Of a stretch of DNA of 64,000 nucleotides, positions 4,909-52,586 are shown one piece after another. The stretch is from Christensenellaceae bacterium. GTDB taxonomy: Bacteria > Bacillota > Clostridia > Christensenellales > Borkfalkiaceae. A model generated the notes under the pieces. That model was not told where the DNA came from, did no database searches, and was given only the letters and a program-made list of their open reading frames with translations. How positions within the stretch are numbered: the stretch's first letter is position 1; each line of letters opens with the position of its first letter. The stretch covers positions 11,042-75,041 of the forward strand of contig JAZQYW010000015.1 in the NCBI GenBank assembly GCA_045633745.1, read 5' to 3'. The position numbers were made by a program, and so were the translations under genes.

Positions 4909-4940
4909 ATTTTATTAATGCAACTGCCCTATCCTTTTAG

Positions 4941-5678: not shown

Positions 5679-5704
5679 AATATCACCTAAATTACTTTTT
5701 ATTG

Positions 5705-5735
5705 TAAAAAACCCGCAAAAAAATTTTTGCGGGCA
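5705..5735 (-). terminator. rho-independent terminator after efp
   Basis: CCCGCAAAAA/TTTTTGCGGG stem then a T-run on the minus strand. Confidence 0.7.
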
Positions 5736-5765
5736 TTATTTATCGGTTTTAATTACTATATAATC

Positions 5766-6326
5766 TTAACCCTTAACTCTTTCCATGTATTCGCCAGTTC
5801 TTGTGTCAACTCTGATGAGTTCACCTTCTTCAACGAACATAGGAACTTGAAGGCGTGTGCCTGTTTCCAAAACTGCTTCTTTTGTTGCGTTTGTTGCTGT
5901 GTTGCCCTTAACTGATGGGTCTGCTTGTGTGACACGAAGTACAACAAAGTTTTCACATTCAACAGAGAAAGCAACGCCCTTGTATGACCTTACGATAACT
6001 GGGTCGTTTTCTTTAATCCATTTAAGTGCATCTTCAACTTGGTCATAGTTGAGTGGTGTAAGGTTGAATTCTTGGTCCATAAAGTAGTAAAGTTCACCAT
6101 CTGTATATGAATATGTCATATTTCTTGTTTCAATTTGTGCTTCTTGAACTTTTTCGGTTGGGTTCCAAGTTTTTTCCAAAACCTTGCCAGTAACAACGTT
6201 CTTCATTGTCGTTCTAACGAACGCTGCGCCTTTACCAGGTTTAACGTGTTGGAATTCAACGATTGTGTAAATACCACTTTCATATTCGAAAGTAACGCCC
6301 TTTCTAAAATCGCCTGCTGTAATCAT
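5766..6326 (-). CDS. efp: elongation factor P
   Basis: 186 aa, [19 protein letters not shown] motif. Confidence 0.95.
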
Positions 6327-13963: not shown

Positions 13964-13972
13964 TTATTTCTC

Positions 13973-14287
13973 CTAATTTTTCACAATAAAATCGTTTTCT
14001 ATATTCTCTAAAATTGCCTTTGCCAAAGCCTTGTCGGCAACTGCCATTACCTTTGCGTTTTCCCTGTGCGTTATATCTTCAAGGTTTTCTTTAACCGTCA
14101 CAACAAGTGGGCAATGATACTTGTTTGCCACTTTTAAGGCTTCGTTTTGGGTGTTTTCACTAGCCGATTTACAAACGATTAGTAAATTTATGCTCTTTAG
14201 CGTTTGAACGGCGTTCATACCAACACGAAACTTTCTTGCACGAATAGCAAAACCTATAAACGTATTCGCTTTACTCTTGTTCTCCAA
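13973..14287 (-). CDS. ylxQ: L7Ae-family RNA-binding protein YlxQ
   Basis: 104 aa located between ylxR and infB, the conserved nusA-operon position. Confidence 0.75.
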   Translation of the reverse strand: MENKSKANTFIGFAIRARKFRVGMNAVQTLKSINLLIVCKSASENTQNEALKVANKYHCPLVVTVKENLEDITHRENAKVMAVADKALAKAILENIENDFIVKN

Positions 14288-14537
14288 GGAAATCCTCCAT
14301 TATTTTATCGTAAACGTTTTCTTCAACTTGACAAGAAAATGCACGATTTAACAGTTTTTGTTTTTTCAACTTTGCAATGCAAGTTTCGTCATTGCAAACG
14401 TAAGCGCCCCTACCGTTGAGTTTACCCGTCTTGTCCAACTTAATTTCATCGTTAAACTTGACAACTCTTATAAGTTCACGCTTTGGTTTACTTGCCCTAC
14501 AAGCAATGCAAGTGCGCATAGGTATCTTTTTTTCCAT
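14271..14537 (-). CDS. ylxR: YlxR/DUF448 RNA-binding protein
   Basis: PMRTCIACR motif. Start moved to the second ATG (MEKKIP), which follows a GAGGAA RBS and avoids overlap with nusA. Confidence 0.8.
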   Translation of the reverse strand: MEKKIPMRTCIACRASKPKRELIRVVKFNDEIKLDKTGKLNGRGAYVCNDETCIAKLKKQKLLNRAFSCQVEENVYDKIMEDFLGEQE

Positions 14538-14538
14538 A

Positions 14539-15627
14539 TTAGATAGATTCCTCATCTACGTTAATTTCGCCCATATCTTCAAGTTCTTTCATTGCAACAG
14601 ATTCGCTCTTAACGTCAATCTTCCAGCCTGTAAGTTTAACTGCAAGTCTTGCGTTTTGACCACTTCTGCCGATTGCAAGTGAAAGTTTATCATCTGGAAC
14701 GACAGCCATTGCACTTTCATCGCCAGTTTGAATAACCTTGATTACTCTTGCTGGTGACAATGCGCTTGAAATGAATTCAAGTGGGTTTTCGCTCCAAGGA
14801 ATAATATCAATCTTTTCGCCACCAAGTTCAGATACGATAGCGTTAACTCTTGCACCCTTGCTACCAACACAAGCGCCCAAAGCATCAACTGATGGGTCTT
14901 CGCTATAAATAGCAATCTTTGTTCTTTGACCTGGGTCTCTAACAACGCCCTTAACTAAAACAATGCCTTGCTTAATTTCAGGAACTTCATTTTCAAACAA
15001 TCTCTTAACAAGACCGTTTGCAGTTCTTGAAACAACGATTTGAGCAACTCTGCCACTGTTCTTAACTCTCTTAACGTAAACGTTAAGTCTTTGGTTAACT
15101 TCGTATTTTTCACCAGGAACTTGGTCTCTTGGCATCAAAATACCTTCGATTTGACTTCCACCGATTTCAACGTAAACAGTGCCGTCTTCAATTCTACGAA
15201 CGGTGCAAACCATAAGTTCGCCTTCTTTATCTTCAAATTCATTTACGGTCTTTTCGTGTTCAATTTCACGAAGTTTTTGTAAAAGAACTTGTTTTGCCGT
15301 TTGCGCTGCAATTCTGCCAAAGTTCTTTGTTTGAATTTCAGCAGTCACTTGGTCGCCAACCTTATAAGACTTTTTGATTGCCAAAGCATCTTCAAGGCTA
15401 ATTTCCTTTTCGCTGTCAACAACTTCTTCAACTATGTTGCGAATACTATAAACCTTAATAGATTTTTTTTCTGGGTTTACTTTAACTTCAACCATTCCAC
15501 CTTCGGTAGAATTCTTTTTGTATGCAATAGTGAGCGCATTTTCAAGTGCAGAAATAAATTCTTCCTTTAAAATGCCCTTTTGCAATTCTAGTTCGTCAAG
15601 TGCTGCAAAGAAATCTTGATTAATCAT
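14539..15627 (-). CDS. nusA: transcription termination/antitermination factor NusA
   Basis: S1 plus two KH domains (GACVGSKGARV, AIGRSGQNARLA). Confidence 0.95.
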   Translation of the reverse strand: MINQDFFAALDELELQKGILKEEFISALENALTIAYKKNSTEGGMVEVKVNPEKKSIKVYSIRNIVEEVVDSEKEISLEDALAIKKSYKVGDQVTAEIQTKNFGRIAAQTAKQVLLQKLREIEHEKTVNEFEDKEGELMVCTVRRIEDGTVYVEIGGSQIEGILMPRDQVPGEKYEVNQRLNVYVKRVKNSGRVAQIVVSRTANGLVKRLFENEVPEIKQGIVLVKGVVRDPGQRTKIAIYSEDPSVDALGACVGSKGARVNAIVSELGGEKIDIIPWSENPLEFISSALSPARVIKVIQTGDESAMAVVPDDKLSLAIGRSGQNARLAVKLTGWKIDVKSESVAMKELEDMGEINVDEESI

Positions 15628-15751
15628 TTTTTTCTCCTTAAAATATTTATCCTAATTTATATTTTTTCTTTTTAATGTTTTGTTAACTATTTTCTCGGGG
15701 TTTTGAACTGAAAATAGTCGGTTAACTTGATATCAAGCGAAAATGCCCTAT

Positions 15752-16216
15752 TTATTCAAAATCTATATACTCATTAATTTTAACAATGGTCTTTAAATCG
15801 ATTGTAAAGGTGTTTTTTTCGTCAACCTTTAAGGTTATTTGCTTTTTATCATAACTCAATAAAATTCCATCGTAAAATTTCTTACCCTTAATAGACGCAT
15901 ATAGTTTAACTTCCACCCTTTCGCCTATATGTGACAAAAAGTCTTCATCAGTCTTAAATGGTCTATCAATACCCAAACTTGAAACGTTTAGCCTATATGG
16001 CAAACCAAAAGTTGGGTCAAACTCATCAAGTGGGTCGTTGATTGCATTGTGGAAAATTTCACAAGTATCAAGGTCAACCCCGCCGTCCTTATCGATAAAA
16101 ATTGTAAGTTCAGGGTTTTTGCCTTGCTTAAACTCAACTTCCACAGCATTGATGCCGAGTGGGTCGCCGATTTTTTTAGCAAATTCTAAAATTTCTGCGT
16201 TAGATTTTACCTTCAT
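15752..16216 (-). CDS. rimP: ribosome maturation factor RimP
   Basis: 154 aa; conserved position upstream of nusA. Confidence 0.9.
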   Translation of the reverse strand: MKVKSNAEILEFAKKIGDPLGINAVEVEFKQGKNPELTIFIDKDGGVDLDTCEIFHNAINDPLDEFDPTFGLPYRLNVSSLGIDRPFKTDEDFLSHIGERVEVKLYASIKGKKFYDGILLSYDKKQITLKVDEKNTFTIDLKTIVKINEYIDFE

Positions 16217-16323
16217 AATTCTCCTTTATAAAAGAATATGAGAACGGGTTTCCGTTCTCATAAGTCAAGCATCTTATTCAAGTATCATTATTTTAACACA
16301 TTTTTATTACTTTTGCAAGCATT

Positions 16324-17856
16324 TTACAAATTATTTTTAATTTTTAACATTTCAATCATAACTTCTGCAGTGGTGTATGCATCAGGGGTTGCCCTATGAT
16401 GTTGAAACGTTATTCCAAAATGGTCTGCAACAGTGTGTAAATCGTGTTTTCTCAACTTTGGCAAAGTTTGTCTTGCCAAATCTAAAGTGTCCAAAATTTC
16501 ATTTTTAATTTCGTATTCAAGTCCACCGCAAAAACGCCTTAAGAACTTTATATCAAAATCTAAAATGTTGTGTCCAACCAAAACCGACCCTTCGATAAAT
16601 TTCATAAAATCTGGCACAACTGCGTTTATCTTTGGTGCATCTTTAACCATATCTTCGGTGATGCCAGTGATTTTTGAATTTTCTTCGGTTATAGGATAGT
16701 CTGGCTTAATCAAGGTTGAAAACTCTTCGGTCATCTTTCCATCGACTAATTTTACTGCACCGATTTCGGTTATGCCTTGACTCATATAGTCAATGCCGGT
16801 CGTTTCAATATCCAAAACAACAAAAGTCTTTTCAAGAAGTTCCTTTGGCAAAATTTCTTCTGCATCAAAAACGCTTTTAACCTTAACCTTTGTCTTTGCT
16901 GGCGTTGGAAAAATAAGTTTATATTCTCTTGGCGCTTGCTTTTTATACTTTTCCTTCTTAACAAAATTAGTTGGGAAAGTGCAACGGTTTATCTTTTCAA
17001 AGGTAAAAGAACGTCTGCCGTTATATTCACCTATGTTGCCACGTGCGATTATACATTCGCCAACTGTAATTTCCTTAATCTTGTGATAGGTGCTTTTTTT
17101 AGAAAAATACACCCCACTTGTTCTGCCGGTAGTATCGTCAATATTAATAATCAAAAACGGCTTGCCATTTTTAGTTTCCTTTTCCTTAATATCGGTGACC
17201 GTTCCACAAACGGTGACGTCACCATTAGTCGCATCTTCGATATATAGCGCAAGGTCACCCATATTCTCATCATCAATAACAACAACGTCGTTAACCTTTA
17301 TCGTTCTATGCTCTATCTTTTGCAACTCATCTTCAAAAACTTCTTCGTTAAGTAAACTTAAAGTTTCGTCCTTTTCCTTTATTTCCGTTCCACCTGCAAA
17401 ATCCGAACAAAACATCTTTGAAAGATGTGTGTTAAGCCTGTTCAAAGCACCGTTTTTGGTCATATATTCAGCGCCGTCTTGCGTTAATCTTAAAGTGTAT
17501 TTTACAAGATTACCAACAACGTTTGATATTATATCGTTTGGACTTAAAAATATAGAAATCGATGGATAATTATCGTTTAAAAACCTATAAATTTCGGTAT
17601 TTATAAGTTGGTCGTTGCTGACGATTTTTTTAACGCTTATTTGCACAACGGAAAATATAGGCGAAGAAATTTTTTCGGCTTCTTTTAAAATTTTTCTTTG
17701 CAAATCTTCATCAACCACTTGGTCACATATAAAGTTGTAGCGAATAGCGTATTCATTTTTGTCGATTTCAATAGAGTTTAGGCGAATATTTTTAATTCTT
17801 TCGTCTAAAAGTCTTAAATCGGCAATAAATTCCGCATTACTTTTTATTGTGTACAT
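16324..17856 (-). CDS. PolC-like N-terminal domain + OB fold + DnaQ-type 3'-5' exonuclease, with no PHP or polymerase domains
   Basis: OB segment VCGTVTDIKEKETKNGKPFLIINIDD. Exo motifs VVLDIETTG, VGHNILDFD, HHRATPDA. Colinear with PolC residues but only 510 aa. Confidence 0.6.
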   Translation of the reverse strand: MYTIKSNAEFIADLRLLDERIKNIRLNSIEIDKNEYAIRYNFICDQVVDEDLQRKILKEAEKISSPIFSVVQISVKKIVSNDQLINTEIYRFLNDNYPSISIFLSPNDIISNVVGNLVKYTLRLTQDGAEYMTKNGALNRLNTHLSKMFCSDFAGGTEIKEKDETLSLLNEEVFEDELQKIEHRTIKVNDVVVIDDENMGDLALYIEDATNGDVTVCGTVTDIKEKETKNGKPFLIINIDDTTGRTSGVYFSKKSTYHKIKEITVGECIIARGNIGEYNGRRSFTFEKINRCTFPTNFVKKEKYKKQAPREYKLIFPTPAKTKVKVKSVFDAEEILPKELLEKTFVVLDIETTGIDYMSQGITEIGAVKLVDGKMTEEFSTLIKPDYPITEENSKITGITEDMVKDAPKINAVVPDFMKFIEGSVLVGHNILDFDIKFLRRFCGGLEYEIKNEILDTLDLARQTLPKLRKHDLHTVADHFGITFQHHRATPDAYTTAEVMIEMLKIKNNL

Positions 17857-18916: not shown

Positions 18917-18955
18917 GAAAAAAAATTAAGGCGTACGATTGTACATACGCCTTAA
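18917..18955 (-). terminator. rho-independent terminator ending the phage-like operon
   Basis: TTAAGGCGTA / TACGCCTTAA 10-bp stem, 10-nt loop, then a T8 run on the minus strand. Confidence 0.7.
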
Positions 18956-18964
18956 CTGGTTTTA

Positions 18965-19861
18965 TTATAATCCTGCGTGCAATTTATAAATATACATTAC
19001 GTTTTGATAATAGTCTTCAAGATAAATTGCAAGTTTGTCTTCAGCAAACATATCACGATAAGCATCTTCAACAGGCAAAGTATCGTAATACCCCCTAACA
19101 CATCTTATAACGTCGGTATAATAACCCATTTCTACAAGTTGGTCTTTTGTAAATTCGCCCGAACTAATATCCAAAAATCTTAAATAAAGGCTTGCTTGAG
19201 TTTCCTTTATCGTATTTCTGTATCTTTGTTCTTTTTCTTCCAAGCCGTTATTATACTTAAACGTTTCCCTAACAAGTTTTTCAAACTCATCTTTTAATTC
19301 GATAATCTTTTTATCGATTTCCATTTGATGAATAACTTCAAAAAAACTTTTTTCATTAGCAACTTGGTCCAAAAGTGCACTTTTCTTTGCGTTTATAGAT
19401 GCAAGTTGGTCGTTCTTTTCTTGAATAATCCTTGCGATTTTATCGTTTAAACTATCTTCAAGCACCACCGTTTTGTCAACTATAATCGACGAATTATAAA
19501 GCCCTGCTTTTACAACCTGATTTTCGACTTTTTTAATGCTTTCGGCATATAAAACCCTGACCTTTTCAATTTCAGTGTCAGCATTTTGTTCCAGTAAAAT
19601 TGCCTTTTGTTCTAGTTCTAAAATCTGTGAATTCAAGTCTTTTTCATAAGTCAAAATTTCACGTTCGTGCTGACTTTTAAGCAAGTTTGTTGCTTTTTCT
19701 ATAAACTCTTCTTCACTTATTTCTTGAACGGGAAGTCTTGGCAATTCTAACTCCACAAGGTTAACTTCTTCATATCCTTCTCTACGCACTCTGTAGTAAT
19801 AAAATAAGTCGTTTAGGATATTATACATTTCTTCTTTTGTTGTAGGTAAATTAAATTCCAT
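18965..19861 (-). CDS. hypothetical coiled-coil protein, last gene of the phage-like operon
   Basis: 298 aa, long heptad-like E/K/Q-rich centre; no motif I recognise. Confidence 0.5.
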   Translation of the reverse strand: MEFNLPTTKEEMYNILNDLFYYYRVRREGYEEVNLVELELPRLPVQEISEEEFIEKATNLLKSQHEREILTYEKDLNSQILELEQKAILLEQNADTEIEKVRVLYAESIKKVENQVVKAGLYNSSIIVDKTVVLEDSLNDKIARIIQEKNDQLASINAKKSALLDQVANEKSFFEVIHQMEIDKKIIELKDEFEKLVRETFKYNNGLEEKEQRYRNTIKETQASLYLRFLDISSGEFTKDQLVEMGYYTDVIRCVRGYYDTLPVEDAYRDMFAEDKLAIYLEDYYQNVMYIYKLHAGL

Positions 19862-19871
19862 AATTTCTCTC

Positions 19872-21107
19872 CTATGCTATATATTTTAATTGCAAATCAC
19901 TGACGTCAGTATTTACGTTTGGTTTATAATCAATTTCAAAGGTAAACTCTTTTGAACGCAAGTTCATTGTCATTTGATTTATGCCTGCTTTTAACTTGTA
20001 AGTTTTACTTCCAAAATCGCCTTTTATCTTAAAGGTTAGACTTTTTGTCACCTTTATCGTTAAGGCAATGAGCGATTTTTTATCATAAGACCCCAAATTA
20101 ATCGCCGTGCTTTTCCAAACTGAACAAGCAAGTGGCGTTGATTTTACGGTATAAATACTATTGTCTGCAGGGGTGAATAATATATTTTTGCACATCAATT
20201 TTCTTTCCCCAACGTTAACCAACATAAAGGTCTTATTTATAACGTCATACCTAAAAACACAATTACTTCCATTTGCAACAACTGGGCAATAATAAACGTC
20301 GCCGTCAGCAGTTGCAAATCCTTCTAAATTTGCAATCTTCTTTGAATAAATATTAGAGATTTCTTTAATTGAAAAGTCTTCATACACATAAAATTTTCCA
20401 TTAGCAACAAAGAATAATTGTTCCCTTATTTTTGCCAAAGTCCCTTTTTCAACAACAAAGTTGTCCGTCTTGATTTTTTCAAGTTTAAACTCCCCGTCAG
20501 TTATGGTTAACTTATAAAATTGTTGTGCGCACACGATAAGCAAATAACTTGAAAAGTCATATATTCCCAAAATTTCGCCGTCGCTATCATCCACACTAAA
20601 ATTACCACAATTATCAAACTTCATAGAGTGTTTTTCAAAATCAAAAGGACTGCTAAAATAAACTGTTTTTCCCTTTGCAACAAAACATCTTAATGCAAAG
20701 GTTTGCAAAACATTTCCGTATGGCAAACTTACGCTATAATCGTTTTTGCCCAAAATTCTGCCACCCGTTTGGTTTATGTGCAAAACTTCGGCTTTGCCTT
20801 CTACGATAACTTCGCACATAATAGGCAAACTTGTGCCATAATAATTTTTTTGAACAAAGTTTTTATTAACTTTTTCATATAAATATCCATCATTACAAGT
20901 CGCATAGATTTTTTTATTTGCTTCGCACATTTTTAATATTTCAAAACCTACCGTTTGCGAATAATTACTGCATATATCTATCGCACTTAATTTTTCGCCA
21001 ACAACCACGCTTTCAGCGTGTTCTGTTATGTTAAGAAAGTCGTTTACCTTAAACGTTTTTACTTGCACCTTTGGTTGTATTAAATAATTTTTACGCATTA
21101 AACCCAA
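19872..21107 (-). CDS. hypothetical beta-rich protein in the phage-like operon
   Basis: 411 aa with repetitive beta-strand-like segments. Start coupled to the upstream stop (TAATG at 21096-21100 if the start is M4). Confidence 0.5.
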   Translation of the reverse strand: MGLMRKNYLIQPKVQVKTFKVNDFLNITEHAESVVVGEKLSAIDICSNYSQTVGFEILKMCEANKKIYATCNDGYLYEKVNKNFVQKNYYGTSLPIMCEVIVEGKAEVLHINQTGGRILGKNDYSVSLPYGNVLQTFALRCFVAKGKTVYFSSPFDFEKHSMKFDNCGNFSVDDSDGEILGIYDFSSYLLIVCAQQFYKLTITDGEFKLEKIKTDNFVVEKGTLAKIREQLFFVANGKFYVYEDFSIKEISNIYSKKIANLEGFATADGDVYYCPVVANGSNCVFRYDVINKTFMLVNVGERKLMCKNILFTPADNSIYTVKSTPLACSVWKSTAINLGSYDKKSLIALTIKVTKSLTFKIKGDFGSKTYKLKAGINQMTMNLRSKEFTFEIDYKPNVNTDVSDLQLKYIA

Positions 21108-21655
21108 CTCCTTGCTCTAATCTTTTTGTTTTTTGGCAAACAAATTTCTGCAATGGCATCAACGTATCTTTTATGGTGCATAACAGCCTGTTCAAAAAGA
21201 CTTTGTGTAATACAATATTCAGCCACAACTCCATAAGCAAGTGTTGTTGCTGAAATATCTTTTTCCGAATAACCAACGTTATCTTCTAAACCATAATTTT
21301 TAGGTAAATATAAAAATTCAACAGTGCACTTTGTAATTTGTGCATTTACGTAATGGTTATCAACTGTAAAATCAATCGGATTTCCGTTAATATCGTAAAC
21401 TGCAACAATCTTAACAATTTTGTCGTTTAATTGATTTAAAGGTTGTCTGCCGTTAACAAAAGTCACGGTTGACTTTGACACCAAAGGTAAATAAGTGCTT
21501 GCAAGTTCTTCCACAACAAGCGTGCAAAGATTTGTCAACAAGTTAACCGTTTCTAACGTATCAACGCCTGTATTTTCCTTTCCGTCAAGATAGTTAATAA
21601 CGTCGCTTCTTCCTAAAATTAAGGCTGAATTTCTAACTATATCTTTAATTTTCAT
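21098..21655 (-). CDS. hypothetical protein; positional candidate for head completion / head-tail adaptor
   Basis: 185 aa immediately after the capsid gene; assignment is by gene order only. Confidence 0.4.
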   Translation of the reverse strand: MKIKDIVRNSALILGRSDVINYLDGKENTGVDTLETVNLLTNLCTLVVEELASTYLPLVSKSTVTFVNGRQPLNQLNDKIVKIVAVYDINGNPIDFTVDNHYVNAQITKCTVEFLYLPKNYGLEDNVGYSEKDISATTLAYGVVAEYCITQSLFEQAVMHHKRYVDAIAEICLPKNKKIRARSWV

Positions 21656-21670
21656 AAAAATCTCCTTTTT

Positions 21671-21702
21671 ATAAAAATTGCCGAGTCAAAAGGACTCGGC
21701 AA
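21671..21702 (-). terminator. intra-operon hairpin (partial terminator/attenuator) after the capsid gene
   Basis: TTGCCGAGTC / GACTCGGCAA 10-bp stem followed by TTTTTAT on the minus strand. Confidence 0.5.
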
Positions 21703-21719
21703 TTCGTATTATGATTTTT

Positions 21720-22892
21720 TTACGCTTCAGTAATTCCTGTAAGAACGCCTTGTCCGTTAGGACGTGCACAAATAAGGTCTGCGTATTTAACCAAAGTAGC
21801 CGTATAAACTGGCTTACCTGGAACTTGCTTTAACACTTTGCCATCGTCATCAGCAAGCCATTGCCAATCGCAAAGTTGATGAAGTGTAAAGTCATCAGTA
21901 TTAAGCATATACATAGTTCCTGCTGGGCAGAATCTATCTGCAACGATAGGAATACCATTATAACTAATAGCCCTAAAGCCACCGTTAAGTTCCATGTTGT
22001 CGATAACACGCTTATTTGTTGCAAAGAGTTGTTGCAACGCTCTTCTAACGCCCCAAGAACATACCATAAAGTTTACGCCCTTGCCACTGTTTTCTTCGAT
22101 TGTGTCAAGTGCTGTTTGGATAGCGATTTCACTGATTTCGCCAACGTTTTCTTTTTTGTAAGAGTTCATCCAAGGGTTTTCAGATTTTGCCAAGCCATAG
22201 ATAGATGGGTTGTTAAAGAGTGCGTCAAGACCAGTAATTTCGTTGCCGAAAGAGCCTTGAACTGTCACCATTGTTCCAGTTGCAAATTCTGTGTCAGAAA
22301 TAGTGCCACCTGAAACTACGATTGAGTTTGAAGCCTTGTCAATTTGTGTGATTTTTCTTTCAGCAAGACCTGAAATGATATTGCCACTTGCATCACGGAC
22401 GTCGATAATCATACCTTCAATAAGGTTTTTGGTTGAATCAACGACAATCTTATTTGATTTAACCTTAACTGCGCCAGCAAGTTTTCCTGTGCCGTTGCCG
22501 AAAAGCATTCTGCCAAAGTTGAAACTGCTTGCTCTAACAAGACCTTCCATTTCAGAATTCAAAAGGCTTACGAAAGCACCTGCATTATTTTCAGATGCTC
22601 TGATTGCCTTGTCTGAAATTTCGATAACGCCATAAAGGTTTTTAAGAGTGGTCACAAATTGCTTGTAGTTGTTGCCTGCAGATGCTGGCAAAGAACCATC
22701 TTCTGTACCAGCACCGATACCACCGTTAATGCCGTATGTAGCAAGTTTTCTAACTTCCTTACCCCAAACGTCGTTGGTACTCTTTTTGATTGCCGCTAAA
22801 AGTGGGTTTACGTTGTTGTCTAATTGATGACTGATTGCATCAAGGTATATTGATTTTAATGCACTGTCTGCATTTGTTAAATTAACTGCCAT
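21720..22892 (-). CDS. phage major capsid protein (HK97-fold type)
   Basis: 390 aa. Position after the scaffold gene, with N-terminal and central segments (LKSIYLD..., ISDKAIRAS) resembling phage major capsid families. Confidence 0.7.
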   Translation of the reverse strand: MAVNLTNADSALKSIYLDAISHQLDNNVNPLLAAIKKSTNDVWGKEVRKLATYGINGGIGAGTEDGSLPASAGNNYKQFVTTLKNLYGVIEISDKAIRASENNAGAFVSLLNSEMEGLVRASSFNFGRMLFGNGTGKLAGAVKVKSNKIVVDSTKNLIEGMIIDVRDASGNIISGLAERKITQIDKASNSIVVSGGTISDTEFATGTMVTVQGSFGNEITGLDALFNNPSIYGLAKSENPWMNSYKKENVGEISEIAIQTALDTIEENSGKGVNFMVCSWGVRRALQQLFATNKRVIDNMELNGGFRAISYNGIPIVADRFCPAGTMYMLNTDDFTLHQLCDWQWLADDDGKVLKQVPGKPVYTATLVKYADLICARPNGQGVLTGITEA

Positions 22893-22905
22893 AATTTCTC
22901 CTTAA

Positions 22906-23364
22906 TTAATGTTTGTTTAATAAATTTTTTGCGAGATTGCCCGCTTCTTCAATAGTTTTTGGTCGATTAACCGGTGTTTTCACGCTAACCCCAGCCCCGT
23001 CCATAATAATTGCGCTTGGCTTTTTACCAAGCACGTCAAGTAAATAGTCTTTAAGGATTTTTTCTTTGTCCATAAAGGTTGTATCTGCTTGAGTTGTGGT
23101 TGCACTTTGATTTTCTGCTGGTGGAACTGCCGTTTTATCACCTGCATCCAACTTGCCTTCTAATTCCTTTATTTTCTGACAGCGTTTGGTAAATTCAGAC
23201 TGTAAAGAATTATAAGCGTTTAAGAGTGCACTCACGTCTTTAAATTTTCCTAATGAGACTGCCCCTTTCTCTCCGCCTTCATCCATTTCCGCCTCTGCGG
23301 GTTGCGTTAAAAGTGTAGTTTGTTCATTTTTAATTTCTTCCATAAATTTTTTCTCCATTTTCAT
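22906..23364 (-). CDS. phage scaffolding-like protein
   Basis: 152 aa, acidic/helical, LLNAYNSLQSEFTKR motif, located between the portal and capsid genes. Confidence 0.55.
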   Translation of the reverse strand: MKMEKKFMEEIKNEQTTLLTQPAEAEMDEGGEKGAVSLGKFKDVSALLNAYNSLQSEFTKRCQKIKELEGKLDAGDKTAVPPAENQSATTTQADTTFMDKEKILKDYLLDVLGKKPSAIIMDGAGVSVKTPVNRPKTIEEAGNLAKNLLNKH

Positions 23365-25198
23365 TATTTAACTTATCTTTGTGTTCTCTTATGTGATTAT
23401 AAAATCTTTGCTTTTGTTCATCGTTAAGCGAAGAAAATTCGCTTAAGACGTATCTGGTGTGTTCATCAACGTGGATAGCGTGCTCATCAATTTCATCAAC
23501 CGAAACAACTTTTTTTCTTAAGCCATCGTTTTCTTGTTGTGCTTTTTCTTCTTGAAGTCTTGCAAGCCCCTTTTGATAGTCAAGTTCTTTATAACCTAAC
23601 AAAGACAACACCTTTTCCTTTATTGACGGACGGAGTTTTCCGTCTTCATCAGTTAAAAGTCCACTCTCATACAACTTGAAAATCATATCTTTCTTTTGTC
23701 TGTTTGTGTATAAAAGTTCGTTTTCGTTTTCAAGGTACACGTCGTCGGAATTCACAGCGTTTTTATCAAGATAAAGAATTTTGGTCTTGTTATATTCGTC
23801 TTGCACGTTGATAGCCCTAACCCCAGCAGAAAACTGGTAATAAAGCCTTATCATCAACTTTGATATTTCAACGTAGCAATTCCTAATGCACTCTGCACTT
23901 CGCATAAGCCTTGCGTTGTCTTGCTCAACCAAAATTTCAAGAGCCGTACCACTTGACAACGATGCGTTTGAAGAACTTGACGTGACGTTGCTTACCCCAC
24001 TTATGATAACGAATTCATCAAGCAACTTCTCTTCTTCTTCATTAAAGTCGCTTGGCATATTCATATTAGACATAATTTCAGGGGCTTTAGAGCCTTGTCT
24101 ATACACGATAACTTTACCAGGGGACAAACCTTCTTCTACAAGGTCATCAACGTCCATAGAACCGTCTTCAACAGTCATAACGCCCATTGAAAGTCTGTTC
24201 AAGAATTCGTGTTTTCTATTCTTAACGGCATTGAATGCCCTTTGCACTGGGATTAACCTTTCGATTATGCTACAACCGAAGAAACTGCCCGCTTGTTCAA
24301 GTGAAACCTGCTTAACAAACGGATAACCCCTTTTGCCGTTTTCACCATTTTGGTATGGCAAATCACCAAGGTATAAAAGTTTGTTTCCAGCAACGGTTAT
24401 AAGTCTTCCTAAAGGATATTTTTTTGTTGGTTTCTCATATCTTTCGATAACGATAACGGCATTGTCAAGGGTATTTTGTTTGCTAGATGAAAATGCAGCA
24501 GTCTTTTGCAAACTTTGCACGTCAATGCTTTGTCCACTCAAAGTTATTCCGTAAACTTCTTTAACGGCATCAACGCTCATAACTCTTGCGTGTATAATGC
24601 TTGCGCAATCTTCAATGTTTTCAACCGTCAATGAATCTGGGAAAATTTCAAAAGGTGAAACGGATAAAACGGATACTTCCCCTTCATAAACGTCTTGATT
24701 ATCCACAACGCCTATCTTATTCCCACCTTTGTTATCCCACAAAACCTTGTAAAAGCCCGTTCCACAAGTTTCGCTCCACACGGTTGTCTTTTTAACAATT
24801 TCGTGTAATTTTGTCTTTTTGAACGCACTTTCCAAAAGTTTATCGGCAAGCGAAGCCGATGCCACGTCCTTATCATCATCTGTTCTTGGTCTAACCGAAA
24901 CGCTTGGCTCTATGCAAGCAAACTTTGCAATTCTTGTGTCAACTGCAGGGGCAATGTGGTTATACACCCCTTTTCTTTGCCAGAAAAAAGTGTTGCTTTC
25001 TTCTAGAATTTCGCCCTGTGCGCTTAAGTCGCAATATTGATTTCCGTTTAGAAAATTTATGTTTAATTCCCATTGTCTTTCATAAGTTATCCTGTTTTCT
25101 TGTCTTTTCTTAAAGTCAGAGTACACTTCGGAGATTAATTCTTCAATATACTTCTCCCTTTCTCTTTCTTTTTCAAGTGTTTTAATGCTTTTTCTCAA
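23330..25198 (-). CDS. phage portal protein
   Basis: 622 aa; position after the terminase; size and sequence character typical of portal proteins. Confidence 0.75.
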   Translation of the reverse strand: MRKSIKTLEKEREREKYIEELISEVYSDFKKRQENRITYERQWELNINFLNGNQYCDLSAQGEILEESNTFFWQRKGVYNHIAPAVDTRIAKFACIEPSVSVRPRTDDDKDVASASLADKLLESAFKKTKLHEIVKKTTVWSETCGTGFYKVLWDNKGGNKIGVVDNQDVYEGEVSVLSVSPFEIFPDSLTVENIEDCASIIHARVMSVDAVKEVYGITLSGQSIDVQSLQKTAAFSSSKQNTLDNAVIVIERYEKPTKKYPLGRLITVAGNKLLYLGDLPYQNGENGKRGYPFVKQVSLEQAGSFFGCSIIERLIPVQRAFNAVKNRKHEFLNRLSMGVMTVEDGSMDVDDLVEEGLSPGKVIVYRQGSKAPEIMSNMNMPSDFNEEEEKLLDEFVIISGVSNVTSSSSNASLSSGTALEILVEQDNARLMRSAECIRNCYVEISKLMIRLYYQFSAGVRAINVQDEYNKTKILYLDKNAVNSDDVYLENENELLYTNRQKKDMIFKLYESGLLTDEDGKLRPSIKEKVLSLLGYKELDYQKGLARLQEEKAQQENDGLRKKVVSVDEIDEHAIHVDEHTRYVLSEFSSLNDEQKQRFYNHIREHKDKLNNENGEKIYGRN

Positions 25199-25209
25199 AA
25201 TTTTTCTCC

Positions 25210-25509
25210 TTAATCATTTTGAATTTGTTTTAACAGATAGAGCAAACGAATTTTTTCTTCGTATAGTTCTTCATCTGTCATTTGACTTGTGTCTTTTTGA
25301 TTTTCATCAAGCAAAATTTTAAGAGCGGTCATATCGGGTGGAACTGATTTTGTGGTAATCTTTTTCTTGCTCAACTTAACTTGTCCGTCAGCATCGCTAG
25401 AATACTCTTCAATAACTTCTTTAACGTCGTACCCCAGAGCCTTTTTGATTAACGCTTCTTTCAAATCTTGCTTTAAATCGACTTTTTGTTTTTTACTTTT
25501 TCCTTTCAT
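25210..25509 (-). CDS. small charged protein, possibly terminase small-subunit-like
   Basis: 99 aa; the KKKITTKSVPPDMTALKILL segment resembles small terminase/DNA-binding phage proteins; overlaps the TerL stop. Confidence 0.35.
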   Translation of the reverse strand: MKGKSKKQKVDLKQDLKEALIKKALGYDVKEVIEEYSSDADGQVKLSKKKITTKSVPPDMTALKILLDENQKDTSQMTDEELYEEKIRLLYLLKQIQND

Positions 25510-26926
25510 TCATAATTTTTCTGATTAACCTTTCCTTATCCTTTTGAATTTGTGTCTTTTGCACTTTTGGGGGCAGATTTTCAGGCTTTGTCATTAGATA
25601 ATAGCGAAGTTCATCAAGTGCGTGGTCATCAACTTTTTTAGGGTTTTCCCCTTCGCTCCACCTATAAGTTTTCAACTCTCTTATAAGGTTAGTACAACAC
25701 GGAAAAATATATAATTTTGCTAACCCGTCGTTGACTTTTAGGTATTGCTTTACCCTTTGAATACCACTAAACATATCCTTGTTTACTTTTGGAGATGCAA
25801 CTATGCCAAAATCAAAAAACAGTTCGGTGACACTCTTTGAAGATGCAAGCGTTTTTTGGTTTGCAGCACTGTCTATAAGCGTGTGATATCTGCCTTGACT
25901 ATCGCACTTCCAACCCAAACTTTTGCTTATTTCCTTTATCCTATTTGAGTGATAAGAAATATCTTTGCCCGCTTCAAAATGCTCTGCAACAACAAAAACG
26001 TTTCCGTCGTAATCAACTGCATACCAGTGGGCTGAAAGTGGGTTGTTTAGACCGGGGTCTATTGAAATAGTATCTTGCCACTCTTTTGGGATATGGATAG
26101 GCTCTTTTAGAACGTGAATATTCTCATCAAACTCTGGATAAACAAGCCCCACACTTGCCTTAAATCGACCATATCTTCTGCTTTCAAGTTGGTCGAAAGA
26201 AAGAGTTTTTGTAAGGGCTTCAACTTCCCCCTTATCAAGATAAGGATTATCAGCCCACTCCATAAATTCGCACCAAACTTCAGGATTATTTTCGGTGTTA
26301 AGGTAAATTTTATCGTGTATAAAGGTCAAGCCTTTTAAGGGCGTCATCGTGCCGAAAATTTCCCCCTTTTTATCCAGCACACGCATACGGCACTCATCAT
26401 AGATATCTTCTGGTGGTTCTTCATCAAACCACACGAAATCAAGCGAACTGCCTTGGAACTTTTCTCTGCCTTGGTCACAAGACTTAAAGCCGATAACCGA
26501 TATGCCACCAAACACGTTTTTAATGCGAATTTGGTCGATAACGCCGTATTTAAGACTTTCTTTCTTGCCACTTAACATTGAAACGTCTTCTATCCACGAA
26601 GGGTTTATATAAGACAAAACTTTGCTTTGAGCAACGTCCCTTTGCACTTGTTGGGAAAGCGAAACCACCCACCCGAAAACATTTTTTCTGTTTTCTCTAA
26701 AAGGGTGAATTCCCCTTGCCATATACACCGATTCAACTGCACCACACTCTGTTTTGCCACTCCTGTTTCCCCCGAATACCCATCTGTTCTTTTTTTGGCA
26801 CTTGTGAAAGGCAAGTTGCTTAAGGTGTACTATTTCCCCCGTGTTATATTTTGCCAGTTTGTCTTCGCCCTTTCGGCGTTTTTCTTCAAGTTCAATCTCC
26901 CTTATTCTGTTAATAATATCTTGCAT
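25493..26926 (-). CDS. phage terminase large subunit
   Basis: Walker A GGNRSGKTE, Walker B LDFVWFDEE, C-terminal nuclease-like domain. Confidence 0.85.
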   Translation of the reverse strand: MQDIINRIREIELEEKRRKGEDKLAKYNTGEIVHLKQLAFHKCQKKNRWVFGGNRSGKTECGAVESVYMARGIHPFRENRKNVFGWVVSLSQQVQRDVAQSKVLSYINPSWIEDVSMLSGKKESLKYGVIDQIRIKNVFGGISVIGFKSCDQGREKFQGSSLDFVWFDEEPPEDIYDECRMRVLDKKGEIFGTMTPLKGLTFIHDKIYLNTENNPEVWCEFMEWADNPYLDKGEVEALTKTLSFDQLESRRYGRFKASVGLVYPEFDENIHVLKEPIHIPKEWQDTISIDPGLNNPLSAHWYAVDYDGNVFVVAEHFEAGKDISYHSNRIKEISKSLGWKCDSQGRYHTLIDSAANQKTLASSKSVTELFFDFGIVASPKVNKDMFSGIQRVKQYLKVNDGLAKLYIFPCCTNLIRELKTYRWSEGENPKKVDDHALDELRYYLMTKPENLPPKVQKTQIQKDKERLIRKIMNERKK

Positions 26927-26954
26927 AAATCCCCCAAAATCACCGACTGCGCTT

Positions 26955-26982
26955 ATATTAGCAAAGTTTTTTCATTTGTAAA
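26955..26982 (-). promoter_or_regulatory. putative sigma-A promoter of the phage-like operon
   Basis: Minus strand TTTACA - 16 nt - TAATAT, then a GGGGGA RBS before the TerL ATG. Lies just downstream of the parC terminator. Confidence 0.4.
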
Positions 26983-27019
26983 TAGGGTTATGACACTGCT
27001 TTGAAAAAATTTTAAAAAA

Positions 27020-27075: not shown

Positions 27076-29502
27076 TTATTCAGTAAATATCTTGAACACT
27101 TTTTCAGGTGCACGTTTTTTGTTTTCGTTCTTCAAGGTCTTGCCCTTTGTTGTTCTGTTTTCAATGCCTATATCTTCAGTGTTAACAACAAATGCCACGC
27201 CAAAAGTATCAACAACACCAACGTCAAACGGTGCTTTTACACAAGATGCAAAAACAACTTCGCCATCTTTTCCAAGTTCAACTATCTTGATGCCCTTTCT
27301 ATACCTTGCAAGTGGTTCGATTTCGCTGGTTATAACCCTTTTATAAAAACCTGTGTTTGTGACGATAAAGAATTCGCCTTCTTCATCAACTTGTGAAGTG
27401 AACACTATTTCATCGCCCTTGTTTAAGTTCAATCCCTTAACACCACCAGCAACTCTGCCTTGAACTGGGATATCATCTTTCAATGCATTTAAAGACATAC
27501 CCTTTTTAGTAATGTATGCAATCGTGGTATCAGGCAAGTCTTGTTCAACACCCACAAGCATATCGCCGTCTTTTAGTTTGATTGCTTGATAGTAAGGTTT
27601 TACCAAGTTATATTCAGCCCACTCTGTCTTTTTAATCAAGCCGTCTTTGGTAAAGAACAACAAGTGTCCTTGTGGAAGAGCATTTTCATCAACGGCAAAG
27701 AAAGCAACAGGATATTCGTTTCTTTGTGCTTCTTTGCAAACTGCGTTGAATTTATGTCCTTTATCTCTATAACGGCACTCTGGTGCAACTTCCATATCGA
27801 TTTTACAGCAGTTGCCAAGGTTTGTAAAGGCAAGCAAGGTTTGGTCACTTCTTGCTTTTGTCTTAAATACGATAAAGTCATCTGCAGAAGTATTTTCCTT
27901 AACCGTTTTATCACTCATCTTAAAGTTCTTTTCGGTCATTTTCTTGAAAGACTTGCCGTGTGTAAAGGCAACGATAAAGTCATCAACTTGTTTTAATTCC
28001 TTTTCCACACTTTGAATATCCAACTCTTTACCGCCCATAATGATATTACTTCTACGGTCATCGCCATACTTTTTCTTAATGGCGTTGAGTTCGGCTTTAA
28101 CAACGTGCATTTGCTTAGCCTTGCTTGCGATAATTTCTTCAAGTTCTTTGATTTTCTTCTTTAATTCAGCAAGTTCTTCTTCAAGTTTATAAACTTCAAG
28201 TTTGGTAAGGCGTGCAAGTCTTAAATCAAGAATTGCGCCTGCTTGTTGGTCTGATAAAGAAAATCTTTCACGGAGTTTTGCCCTAGCATCAGTGGTGTTT
28301 TCAGCACCTTTGATAATCTTTATAACTTCATCAATATTCTTAACTGCAACGATAAGTCCTTCTAAAATATGCGCCCTTTCCTTTGCCCTTTCGTGTTCAA
28401 ACTTACAGCGTCTTAAAATAACTTCTCTTTGATAGTTAACGTAATATTTGATAATATCCAAAAGTCCTAATTGACAAGGCTTTCCGTCAGCAATGGCAAC
28501 CATATTGATACCAAAACTAACTTCTAGGTCGGTGTTCTTGTATAAATATGCCAAAATTGCCTTTGCATCGGCATCTTTTTTAAGTTTAACAAGCGCACGC
28601 ATACCGTTTCTGTCAGACTCATCAACAACGTCTGCAATGCCAGATAAAAATTCCTTTCTTTCTTCTTTCATATCAGCAATCTTTTTCAAAAGATTTGCCT
28701 TGTTTACTTGATAAGGAAGTTCGGAAATAACCAAGTTTTGCTTATCCCCAGTATCCTTTTCAATATTGACACGTGCTTTAATTTTAATCTTGCCACGGCC
28801 TGTCTTATAGGCTTCTTCAAGTTCTTCGCCAGCAACAATATAACCACCTGTTGGGAAGTCTGGCGCTTTAATATAGCCCATCATATCCTTTAAGGAAATT
28901 TTTGGGTTATCAATATAAGCAATCGTTCCGTTTATAACTTCAACAAGGTTATGTGGTGGGATATTCGTTGCAAGACCAACTGCGATACCCGTTGCCCCGT
29001 TAACCAAAAGGTTTGGATATCTTCCCGGTAAAGTATCTGGCTCTTCTTGTGTATCGTCAAAGTTAAGGCTAAACTTAACAGTGTCCTTATCAATATCCCT
29101 TAAAAGTTCTAAAGCAAGTTCTTCTAATCTTGCTTCGGTATATCTATAAGCAGCAGCAGAGTCGCCGTCGATAGTACCAAAGTTGCCTTGTCCGTCAATG
29201 AGTGGCATACGCATATTAAAGTCTTGCGCCAAGTGAACTATCGCACCATAAACCGAACTGTCGCCGTGTGGGTGATATTTACCCAAAACTTCACCGACGA
29301 TTTTAGCACACTTTTTGTGTGGCTTATCGAAAGTTAAACCCATTTCATACATAGCGTAAAGAATACGCCTTTGAACAGGTTTTAGTCCGTCTTCAACTCT
29401 TGGCAAAGCACGGTCTAAAATAACGTTTTCCGCATACGGAATCATAGAATTTTTCAAAACTTCATCAAGTGATGAAAAAATTATTCCCTTTTGGTTTTCC
29501 AT
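27076..29502 (-). CDS. type IIA topoisomerase subunit A (ParC/GyrA family; topo IV-like)
   Basis: [12 protein letters not shown] and [10 protein letters not shown] motifs. I did not see a GyrA-box in the C-terminal domain; not near dnaA/recF. Confidence 0.85.
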
Positions 29503-29516
29503 TTTGCTTTGCCCCC

Positions 29517-31469
29517 TTAATCACGTTTAATTTTTGCGAATTTATCTTCTTTATTAAAGTTTGCGTGTTCAAAGATATATTTCTTTCTTTCAGCAACTTC
29601 ATCGCCCATCAACACTGTTATCATCTTGTCTGCTTCGGCAGCGTCTTCAATGGTCACTTGCATAAGTGAACGTGTTTCTGGATTTAAGGTTGTTTCCCAA
29701 AGTTGTGAAGGGTTCATTTCACCAAGCCCTTTATATCTTTGAATTGCATAACCACGCCCAACTTTTGCTATCTTTTCTTGCAATTCTTTGTCGTCAAAAG
29801 CATATTCTTCAACCTTGCCCTTATGCACCTTATAAAGTGGTGGCATACCAACGTAAACGTGCCCTTCTTGGATAAGTTCACGCATATATCTAAAGAAGAA
29901 AGTTAAAAGAATTGCCCTGATGTGCGCACCGTCTTGGTCGGCATCGGAAAGAATAATAACCTTGTGATATTTAAGGCTTTCCAAATCAAATTCCGAACCT
30001 ATACCAGTGCCAAGTGCACTTATTATCGTCCTAATTTCTTCGTTTTGCAAAATTTGGTCAAGTTTTTTCTTTTCAACGTTAAGTGGTTTACCACGAAGTG
30101 GTAAAATCGCTTGATATTGACGCATACGTGCTTGTTTTGCACTGCCACCAGCAGAATCCCCTTCAACTATAAATAGTTCGTTGAGTTCGGCTTTTCTTCC
30201 AGAACAAGCCGAAAGTTTGCCTACAAGATTTTGTGATTCAATGCTCTTTGATGCCCTTGCAATTTCCTTTGCTTTTTTAGCAGCAAGTCTAACCTTTGCA
30301 GCGCCCAAAGCCTTGTTGATAATGGTATCGAAAACTTTGCCAAGTTTTTTATTCTTCATCAAAAGTTCAAGTTCATTTACGGTCACGCTTTCAACGGCTG
30401 GTCTTGCTTCAGGGTTGCCAAGTTTGGTTTTGGTTTGACCTTCAAACTGAACGTTTTGCATTTTAATTGAGATAATTGCCGTTAAACCTTCTTTAAAGTC
30501 ATCGCCAAGCAAGTTATCGTCTTTTTCTTTTAAGATGTTTCTTTCCCTAGCATAATCGTTTAAGGAACGTGTTAAACCAGACCTAAATCCAGTTTCGTGC
30601 ATACCACCTTCGCCCGTTGGGATATTGTTTACGTAAGAGTAAACACTGTCCGTATAAGCATCGGTATGTTGAATTGCAATTTCAACGTAAATATTATCTT
30701 TAGTTGCAGAAAAAGAAAGTGGCTCACTATAAAGTGAAGACTTGCCTTCGTTCAAATATTTAACAAAGTCGGTAATACCACCTTCATATTTATAAGTGCG
30801 TGAAAAATCGGTTTTTTCATCATAGAACTTTATTTCAAGTCCCTTGTTCAAAAAGGCAAGTTCTTTTAATCTTTTAAGGATAGTTTCAACTGAAAATTCA
30901 GTCGTTTCAAAAACCCTTTTATCAGGCAAGAACCTAATGAACGAACCACGCTTTTTGGTCTTTTCCTTTGTATTTTTAAGTGGTGCTTTTGGCACGCCAG
31001 ACTTAACCTTTCCAGTTTCCTTATCAAGATAACTGTGGAAGTCCATTTTATAAATGGTATCCTTATAAACTTCAACTGTAAGCCACTCTGAAAGTGCGTT
31101 TGTGACAGATGCACCAACGCCGTGTAGTCCACCTGAATAACTATAGTTATCAGCATCGAACTTACCACCAGCGTGAAGTTGTGTAAACACGACTTCTACA
31201 CCAGAAACGCCTGCTTTTGAGTGGATATCGGTTGGAATACCACGTCCATTATCTTCAACAGACGCACTTCCATCGCTATACAACTTAACTTCAATCTTGT
31301 TTGCAAAGCCGTTTGCCGCTTCGTCCACGGCGTTATCAACGATTTCCCATAAAATATGATGCAAACCCTTAACGCCCGTCGTACCGATATACATACCAGG
31401 GCGAAGTCTTACCGCATCAAGACCTTCAAGGATTTTTATATCTTCTGCCTTATAACTTGTTTTTGCCAT
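29517..31469 (-). CDS. type IIA topoisomerase subunit B (ParE/GyrB family)
   Basis: GHKL ATPase motifs ([14 protein letters not shown]), Toprim EGDSAGG, PLRGK. Confidence 0.85.

Positions 31470-52509: not shown

Positions 52510-52586
<77 letters not shown>

Follow-up and report, generated by a model that had tools for sequence, protein, structure and literature searches.

Are eight phage-type genes lodged among the housekeeping genes of a gut bacterium the debris of a virus, a passenger or a possession of the cell? The question is raised by a 64,000-nucleotide (nt) stretch of a Christensenellaceae genome (assembly GCA_045633745.1, contig JAZQYW010000015.1, positions 11,042 to 75,041 of the forward strand; hereafter the window), in which a block of eight minus-strand open reading frames (ORFs) sits between a type IIA topoisomerase gene, upstream, and ispG, downstream. 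An earlier examination of the letters without database searches, the sequence-only reading, had described the block as a head-only, domesticated capsid and DNA-packaging module, and had offered three options for its product: a particle resembling a gene transfer agent (GTA), a tail-less transducing capsid, or a satellite that borrows tails. The analysis presented here shows that the block is domesticated, vertically inherited and under purifying selection, a conclusion that leaves little room for doubt, and that it is best described as encoding a head plus closed neck. Of the three options the GTA-like particle fits best: the block probably makes DNA-filled particles that would carry host DNA.

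Few members of the human gut microbiota are as heritable, or as closely associated with health, as the Christensenellaceae. Outside Alphaproteobacteria, hardly any GTA is well characterised.

The block encodes a podovirus-type head and a closed neck

The ORF listing of the window places the eight genes at 18965-26926, a block of 7.96 kb, in which consecutive ORFs are separated by 10-13 nt or overlap by 10-35 nt, the sole exception being the 64 nt between the capsid gene and the gene of the 185-residue protein. Their number, strand, integrity and partial overlap are exactly as the sequence-only reading had them, and the profile and structure searches that it proposed came out in favour of a capsid and DNA-packaging module (Table 1). 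The large terminase, TerL, retains the Walker A (GGNRSGKTE) and Walker B (VWFDEE) motifs and the Asp motifs of the nuclease domain; across 61 species, 43% of its positions are at least 95% conserved, and internal stops are absent from every high-scoring segment pair. The 99-residue protein encoded next resembles the terminase small subunit, TerS: 39 of 40 orthologues match phrog_309 'terminase small subunit' (best E value 3.6e-8), the match being confined to the central part of the profile (positions 191-248 of 319), and profile searches detected no DNA-binding domain in this protein. Capsid homologues number in the thousands; the best 120 are 67-100% identical and 387-392 residues long, and clustering at 50% of those with E<=1e-30 yields 360 clusters. 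The protein encoded between portal and capsid (about 145 residues from the annotated start in relatives) gave no family match in profile searches, and its gene is kept in all loci examined. I call it scaffold-like from its position, which is that of the scaffold gene in P22 and in Microbacterium phage Shocker.

The remaining three genes take the block beyond the 'head-only' description. The AlphaFold2 (AF2) model of the 411-residue protein (mean predicted local distance difference test score, pLDDT, 79; built from 11 homologues) was compared with known structures using Foldseek, which returned the tail nozzles of Pa223 (9nwi_Y, 8.2e-15) and P22 (gp10, 8eap_D, 1.8e-12), followed by Sf6 gp8, VP1, Pan3, GP4, SU10 and T7 gp12. 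The main podovirus nozzle matches (Pa223, P22 gp10, Sf6 gp8 and SU10) span 8e-15 to 1e-10, and ordinary beta-propellers, which the sequence profile also matches, rank below them. The 185-residue protein matches adaptor families only, and those weakly (phrog_2377 at 5e-4 in 4 of 34 orthologues, phrog_442 in one); a profile search of its alignment against the PDB gave nothing significant. Its gene lies between those of the capsid and the nozzle, the position of P22 gene 4, and the designation adaptor-like is a weak one, drawn mainly from gene order. For the 298-residue DUF7934 protein, the AF2 model (pLDDT 85) consists largely of three very long helices (residues 50-119, 125-168 and 170-233) forming helical hairpins, with weak structural matches to an uncharacterised podovirus protein (1.9e-4) and to 'internal virion proteins', as well as to small helical chains of T7 tail complexes (E 0.1-0.3); here too, the alignment found nothing significant in the PDB by profile search. 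Since the gene holds the position of P22 gene 26, its product is a candidate tail plug or needle, or an internal (ejection) protein, an assignment again made mainly from gene order.

The order of the block is collinear with the late operon of P22 as given in its annotated record (2-1-8-5-stem-loop-4-10-26), including a stem-loop after the coat gene, and the two systems share a P22-type portal and a nozzle of the gp10 fold. P22 gp4, gp10 and gp26 are head-completion proteins, which close the portal and retain the DNA. The two differ in that TerS is encoded on the other side of TerL in P22, in that no sequence-level similarity was found for adaptor, nozzle and needle, and in that P22 has a tailspike, the ejection proteins gp7, gp20 and gp16 and non-structural functions, none of which is present in the block. 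Alignment with hhalign of the adaptor, nozzle and DUF7934 profiles to gp4, gp10 and gp26 gave a probability of 0.2; as this comparison fails even for the nozzle, whose fold match is clear, sequence comparison is uninformative here. The nozzle fold and the P22-parallel gene order, together with the adaptor-like and TerS-like proteins, therefore call for the description 'head plus closed neck', a head with a neck or tail hub that completes it, rather than 'head-only'. Such a gene content is the least that a stable podovirus head filled with DNA requires, and the block looks like a minimal set of genes (8 genes, 8 kb) for a DNA-retaining capsid.

The block is inherited with the chromosome and under purifying selection

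To place the block among its relatives, a one-genome-per-species collection was searched, in which 387 stretches (416 pattern matches) encode a relative of the capsid protein; the best 80 were inspected, and all comparison genomes are metagenome-assembled genomes (MAGs). Nearly all of these best 80 of 387 come from human and ruminant guts and bear the label Christensenellaceae, Christensenella or Clostridia. Essentially all of the 80 loci have the eight-gene architecture, with products of about 477, 99, 620, 145, 390, 186, 414 and 298 residues, and among these best 80 of 387 each assembly appears with a single locus. The block is kept intact in dozens of examined Christensenellaceae species, and possibly in several hundred (up to 387 species-level genomes).

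The sequence-only reading had proposed synteny as a check, and the ispG side bears it out: ispG lies within 5.5 kb of the capsid gene in 41 of the 60 evaluable loci and, where it follows, usually begins 58-270 nt after the last gene. This fixed position spans ispG identities down to about 64%, and the ispG-linked loci hold the same eight genes and no more. The other side varies, a topoisomerase gene being the upstream neighbour in 8 of 50 loci, those of the closest relatives only. In more distant members (about 60% capsid identity) the block has other cellular neighbours and is joined by one to three additional ORFs; the extra downstream ORFs of L052, L059, L060, L064, L078 and L080 gave no Pfam or PHROG match other than DUF7934 copies (L060 and L080) and cellular genes. 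At outgroup ispG loci (about 50% ispG identity) in a metagenome scan, the block was present in none of 55. Two MAG loci have two ORFs in place of a single nozzle gene (L029, 11785-13036; L050, 5266-6508), which reflects either a frameshift or pseudogene or an assembly error.

Related sequences also occur in IMG/VR, where 20 contigs of 4.5-16 kb (L083-L102) were found. Most are the same chromosomal block on short contigs, some with topoisomerase or rho and methyltransferase flanks, so that a chromosomal block filed as 'viral contigs' inflates virome and prophage counts.

Across 34 genomes, the pairwise divergence of both TerL and portal follows that of the flanking housekeeping genes (Mantel r=0.84, p=0.001), more closely than ispG does that of nusA (0.74), and the divergence of TerL is 0.235 against a housekeeping mean of 0.289. 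Codon usage (relative synonymous codon usage, r=0.95) and tetranucleotide signature are both host-like.

Purifying selection, the other check proposed by the sequence-only reading, was assessed by the ratio of nonsynonymous to synonymous divergence (dN/dS) against the closest relative, L186. The ratio is 0.035 for TerL, 0.051 for the portal, 0.092 for the capsid, 0.11 for the TerS-like protein, 0.14 for DUF7934, 0.21 for the adaptor, 0.23 for the scaffold and 0.32 for the nozzle, against 0.013-0.077 for flanking genes, all approximate values because dS to L186, at about 0.3-1.2, is near saturation; ratios were also obtained from more distant pairs, in which dS is saturated. Together with the TerL motifs and the absence of internal stops, these values uphold the earlier argument that intact ORFs speak against simple prophage decay. 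The nozzle is the fastest-evolving gene of the block, with 53% amino acid identity in L186, and the adaptor-like protein is 65% identical, as compared with 95-96% for ispG, TerL and topoisomerase; dN is 0.24-0.35 for nozzle and adaptor and 0.02-0.03 for the flanks. Such fast evolution suggests that the neck meets partners that vary, be they the surfaces of recipients or fibres encoded separately. The capsid protein follows host divergence far more loosely (Mantel r=0.42) than do TerL and portal; it diverges fast among close relatives, and its gene, like that of the scaffold, has an unusually low dS (0.3-0.9). Surface diversification, recombination or codon-usage selection are possible sources of this pattern.

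As for traces of mobility, the window holds none of the hallmarks of a P22- or SU10-like prophage (tailspike or fibres, ejection proteins, lysis cassette, integrase, repressor, att sites). The sequence-only reading was right that integrase, repressor, replication and lysis genes (holin, endolysin) are lacking, and fibre genes are likewise absent from the 64 kb. It was also right about the borders: the search for att-like direct repeats gave nothing better than chance-like 24-nt matches at 79%, and the sole tRNA gene of the window (52510-52586) lies 25 kb from the block. Synteny, co-divergence, selection and host-like composition together identify a domesticated element, rather than a decaying remnant or a mobile satellite.

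A conserved promoter region and a hairpin after the capsid gene

Promoter and terminator consensus sites are no more numerous in the region than expected by chance, and only strong, well-placed sites are therefore considered. By this standard the block has, as claimed before, its own promoter-like element after the terminator-like hairpin of the topoisomerase gene and a strong terminator right before ispG (Table 1). The extended -10 (TGnTAnAAT) recurs at the same distance from the TerL start in many loci that have a different upstream gene, and this element, the -35 and a TGTCATA(A) box are common to many lineages, again even where the upstream gene differs. In the window the box reads TGTCATAA; it lies 5-6 nt 5' of the -35, with which it forms an imperfect inverted repeat, TGTCA-N9-T(G/T)ACA. 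TGTCATA is present in 16 of 63 regions upstream of TerL, as against 0.33 expected, and 19 of the 63 contain GTCAT[AG][AT], in every case 57-78 nt upstream of the TerL ATG; the only other copy of the box in the window is intragenic. These features make the box a candidate binding site for a host regulator. A Spo0A-box or sporulation-sigma reading was considered and not adopted, as the box matches TGTCGAA at only 5 of 7 positions and the fit to a CATA-type -10 is inconsistent.

The second conserved signal is the GC-rich hairpin revealed by an inverted-repeat search directly 3' of the capsid gene. About 48 of 66 loci have an equivalent, the stem differing in sequence among them. The hairpin is probably a partial terminator or attenuator, by which the neck genes would be expressed at a lower level than the head genes.

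In L186, two additional genes (4905-5803) separate the topoisomerase gene from TerL, encoding a 66-residue XRE-type helix-turn-helix (HTH) protein on the opposite strand and a 192-residue bPH_2 protein. Both are missing from the window, in which the gap between topoisomerase gene and TerL is 150 nt. The HTH protein is possibly a local regulator, or an unrelated insertion.

Table 1. Features of the block and its borders (positions in the window; E values for family matches)
Feature	Position	Strand	Evidence or remark
Large terminase TerL, 477 residues, packaging ATPase and nuclease	25493..26926	-	PF03237 5.7e-11; phrog_2 6.6e-30
TerS-like protein, 99 residues	25210..25509	-	phrog_309; overlaps TerL end by 17 nt
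Portal, 622 residues (TTG start), P22/SU10 type	23330..25198	-	PF16510 P22_portal 1.4e-15; PF23899 1.7e-8; phrog_156 2.8e-36
Scaffold-like protein, 152 residues	22906..23364	-	Position between portal and capsid genes
Major capsid protein, 390 residues, podovirus HK97-fold family	21720..22892	-	NF033394 capsid_maj_Podo 3.6e-82; phrog_14242 1.9e-65
Head-to-tail adaptor-like protein, 185 residues	21098..21655	-	Adaptor-family matches; gene order
Tail nozzle/head-closure protein, 411 residues (TTG start), P22 gp10 type, beta-propeller	19872..21107	-	AF2 model and Foldseek
DUF7934 protein, 298 residues	18965..19861	-	PF25588 1.5e-11
Conserved TGTCATAA box	26988..26995	-	Just upstream of -35; imperfect inverted repeat with -35
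Sigma-70-type promoter-like site, TTTACA-N16-TAATAT with TG extension	26955..26982	-	
GC-rich hairpin and T-run	21671..21709	-	Directly 3' of capsid gene; inverted-repeat search
Intrinsic terminator closing the module	18924..18957	-	14-bp stem and T-run, just upstream of ispG promoter
Terminator-like hairpin	27050-27023	-	3' of topoisomerase gene
ispG promoter	18916-18888	-	

Comparison with known systems

The statement that no system of this kind had been described in Clostridia stands in part. No description of this gene cluster or locus was found in the searchable literature; by contrast, a podovirus-type GTA-like element and GTA-type packaging in Christensenellaceae have both been reported (PMC12946183). 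The element, the first of its type to be shown, is FpGTA of Faecalibacterium prausnitzii, the particles of which are proven by electron microscopy and proteomics (PMC12946183, Nat Commun 2026). Its 10.5-kb operon encodes TerS, TerL, portal, a Prp-like protein, an 'N4-gp56 family' capsid, adaptor, nozzle (PDB 8eap) and a TolA-like protein, and a separate 5.5-kb operon encodes fibre, receptor-binding and lysis proteins; the particles are 40 nm across, look tail-less and carry about 8.5 kb of host DNA (PMC12946183).

FpGTA and the block have much in common. Each is a chromosomal operon of gut Clostridia without integrase or replication genes. Both encode TerL with a TerS or TerS-like protein, then portal and capsid separated by one small protein, and after these an adaptor, a nozzle resembling P22 gp10 (both match PDB entry 8eap) and finally a helical or charged protein. 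FpGTA is near-ubiquitous in its host clade, and the block may be equally widespread in its own. The differences are as follows. The FpGTA capsid (RCH50849.1) is 'N4-gp56 family' by its NCBI name, whereas that of the block belongs to NF033394 and matches no N4-gp56 model at E<=0.1; TerS precedes TerL in FpGTA, whereas the TerS-like gene follows it in the block; the Prp-like protein has no match in the block; FpGTA comprises 10 genes in 10.5 kb and the block 8 genes in 8.0 kb; the two lie at different loci in different host families; and no counterpart of the second, fibre and lysis operon was identified within the 64-kb window. Because capsid family, TerS position, absence of a Prp-like protein and host family all differ, the block is not filed as a member of FpGTA and is placed instead in the broader class of GTA-like domesticated phage particles. 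The two probably represent independent domestications, being set apart by family names and not by sequences; the block would add a second, apparently independent domestication of a podophage in gut Clostridia.

Like RcGTA, the block is a head-and-packaging cluster with long vertical inheritance, purifying selection and host-like composition, and its TerS-like protein, without a detected DNA-binding domain, recalls the RcGTA small terminase, which has none. RcGTA, found in Alphaproteobacteria, is siphovirus-like, with a tail tube and tape measure encoded among 17 genes in about 15 kb, and is controlled by the regulators CtrA and GafA. Its further genes (lysis, fibres, regulators) are dispersed in the genome. 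The two are unrelated in sequence, and the neck of the block is podovirus-type.

Capsid-forming phage-inducible chromosomal islands (PICIs) and satellites also have capsid, portal, terminase and connector genes of their own and no complete tail; unlike the block, they are mobile and possess an integrase, att sites, replication and helper-sensing regulation. Among cultured phages, the nearest capsids, at 26-29% identity, are those of Microbacterium phage Shocker and of Arthrobacter phages Jasmine and Adat, which have the same succession of terminase, small ORF(s), portal, scaffold-sized ORF and capsid as the block; in contrast to it, they are complete 45-kb phages of Actinobacteria.

Against this background the block has two features of a GTA: phage structural and packaging genes lie in the chromosome without genes for integration, replication or control of lysogeny in the 64-kb window, and they have been inherited vertically over the long term under purifying selection.

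A GTA-like particle and its rivals

What would the particle do? Long-read sequencing of capsid-protected stool DNA has revealed GTA-type packaging mainly in Ruminococcaceae and Oscillospiraceae; 3 of 25 events belong to Christensenellaceae, with chromosomal fragments that peak mainly at 4.07 kb in HGM11616 and measure 6.3 kb in QANA01, and no gene cluster was named for them (PMC12946183). The peaks of 4.1 and 6.3 kb are both smaller than the 7.96-kb block. The gene content, a TerS-like protein without a detectable DNA-binding domain and these family-level packaging data lead me to favour GTA behaviour, that is, the production of particles filled with host DNA, as the probable role of the block, which would be the best candidate for the packaging observed in Christensenellaceae and offers a concrete, testable genetic basis for it.

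The favoured scenario is that a podovirus-derived morphogenesis and packaging module was captured by an ancestor of the Christensenellaceae lineage and retained as host genes. Transcription would start at the host-type promoter with its conserved upstream box, and the first five genes would supply TerL, a truncated TerS-like protein, portal, scaffold and capsid protein, while the post-capsid hairpin, to judge from its conservation and the P22 parallel, would cut read-through into the three neck genes. Homology suggests assembly of procapsids on the portal, and the example of RcGTA and FpGTA suggests that TerL and its TerS-like partner would then package, by a headful mechanism, whatever cellular DNA is present. 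The adaptor, nozzle and DUF7934 proteins would close the portal channel and so retain the DNA, as gp4, gp10 and gp26 do in P22, a parallel shown by structure for the nozzle and presumed for the other two. Lysis and receptor binding would be encoded elsewhere, as in operon II of FpGTA and the dispersed loci of RcGTA, or be absent.

Several observations weigh against this picture. The 64-kb window has no recognisable lysis, receptor-binding or ejection genes, which leaves release and delivery unexplained. The link to the packaging events is at the level of the family. If the head were to hold about 40 kb, the particle would no longer be 'too small to carry itself', as a GTA is expected to be. 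Capsid distances track host divergence poorly (Mantel r=0.42), and the nearness of dS to saturation blurs the estimates of selection. A stronger version, in which the block underlies the 4-6 kb packaging as an independently domesticated, family-wide, minimal podovirus-type GTA, the most widespread and oldest such element yet recognised in Bacillota, with a promoter box under host control and a fast-evolving nozzle that sets the range of recipient cells, is offered tentatively, the odds being somewhat against it.

The rival that survives best is a domesticated particle selected for a role other than gene transfer. It might act as an anti-phage decoy or by interference, serve the regulated release of extracellular DNA, or store or export DNA under stress; in the interference variant, the host terminase and capsids would hijack or starve an infecting podophage, or borrow its fibres. 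The evidence for domestication and selection applies equally to such a particle, which also fits the lack of receptor-binding and lysis genes in block and window, and fast evolution of nozzle and adaptor is expected of proteins that meet fast-evolving partners such as phage fibres. There is a precedent in the GTA-like PBSX, which packages DNA without transferring it (PMC12946183). Yet the block has no linked defence-type genes, co-evolution with recipient surfaces or with partners would explain the rapid change of the distal tail equally well, and packaging in the family was seen in stool of healthy donors with no evidence of an infecting helper (PMC12946183). I regard a non-transfer role as unlikely, though the main rival of the GTA-like particle.

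Far less probable is a still mobile element, either a split prophage or a capsid-forming, PICI-like satellite, of which the other genes lie elsewhere. One sequence that speaks for it is L091, an IMG/VR contig (about 55% capsid identity) on which the same head block is accompanied by a 796-residue tail protein (phrog_5302) and a 683-residue protein after a larger nozzle gene (11968-16419), and by a sigma-factor-like regulator upstream of TerL (1526-2188); the contig resembles a more complete, phage-like form of which the block would be a reduction. Virus-prediction pipelines also file the block as viral, and L186 has the divergent XRE-type HTH gene upstream of TerL. A mobile element would, however, predict a patchy distribution over multiple sites and phylogenetic incongruence. 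Instead, the position next to ispG is fixed, the block co-diverges with its host and shares its composition, there is one locus per assembly among the best 80 of 387 records, and att repeats, border tRNA, integrase and replication module are all lacking in the window. The option of a satellite that borrows tails falls on the same grounds.

An inert prophage remnant with decay pending, suggested by the many missing phage functions and the split nozzle gene of two loci, is effectively refuted by the selection and synteny data: the eight ORFs are intact in nearly all of dozens of species with housekeeping identities of 64-96%, dN/dS is 0.03-0.3, the TerL active-site motifs are kept, the promoter box and the post-capsid hairpin are conserved, the latter with covarying stems, and identities of 60-95% exclude a single, recently spread sequence. 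Encapsulin and tailocin readings were rejected as well: TerL and portal under selection imply DNA packaging, and there is neither sheath nor tube.

Neighbouring genes

With regard to the surroundings of the block, the scan of the 64 kb covered nearly all other ORFs of at least 100 residues and matched none of them to a phage family. Wherever Pfam or NCBIfam recognised one, it was an ordinary cellular gene; a 462-residue ORF (49427-50815) had no match in the profile scans. Upstream of the block lie the type IIA topoisomerase pair, a DNA methyltransferase gene and rho, downstream ispG, the identity of which is upheld by profile search, a DnaQ/PolC-like exonuclease gene, rimP, nusA and infB.

The upstream neighbour had been named parC. 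It does encode the A subunit of a type IIA topoisomerase, yet that subunit scores below the curated cut-offs of both the GyrA and the ParC models, so that the specific name did not stand. The pair as a whole (27076-31469, minus strand) scores slightly better on GyrA/GyrB than on ParC/ParE models; the GyrB and ParE equivalog models also miss their cut-offs, and the only models to exceed theirs are the broader ones for 'DNA gyrase subunit B' and for topoisomerase subfamilies. Assignment of the pair to gyrase or topoisomerase IV is ambiguous on these scores. On the other side, the 510-residue protein encoded at 16324-17856 (minus strand) is less than a full PolC, combining an OB fold with a 3'-5' exonuclease domain of DnaQ/PolC type; its gene overlaps the end of ispG by 13 nt and is syntenic with ispG across the lineage.

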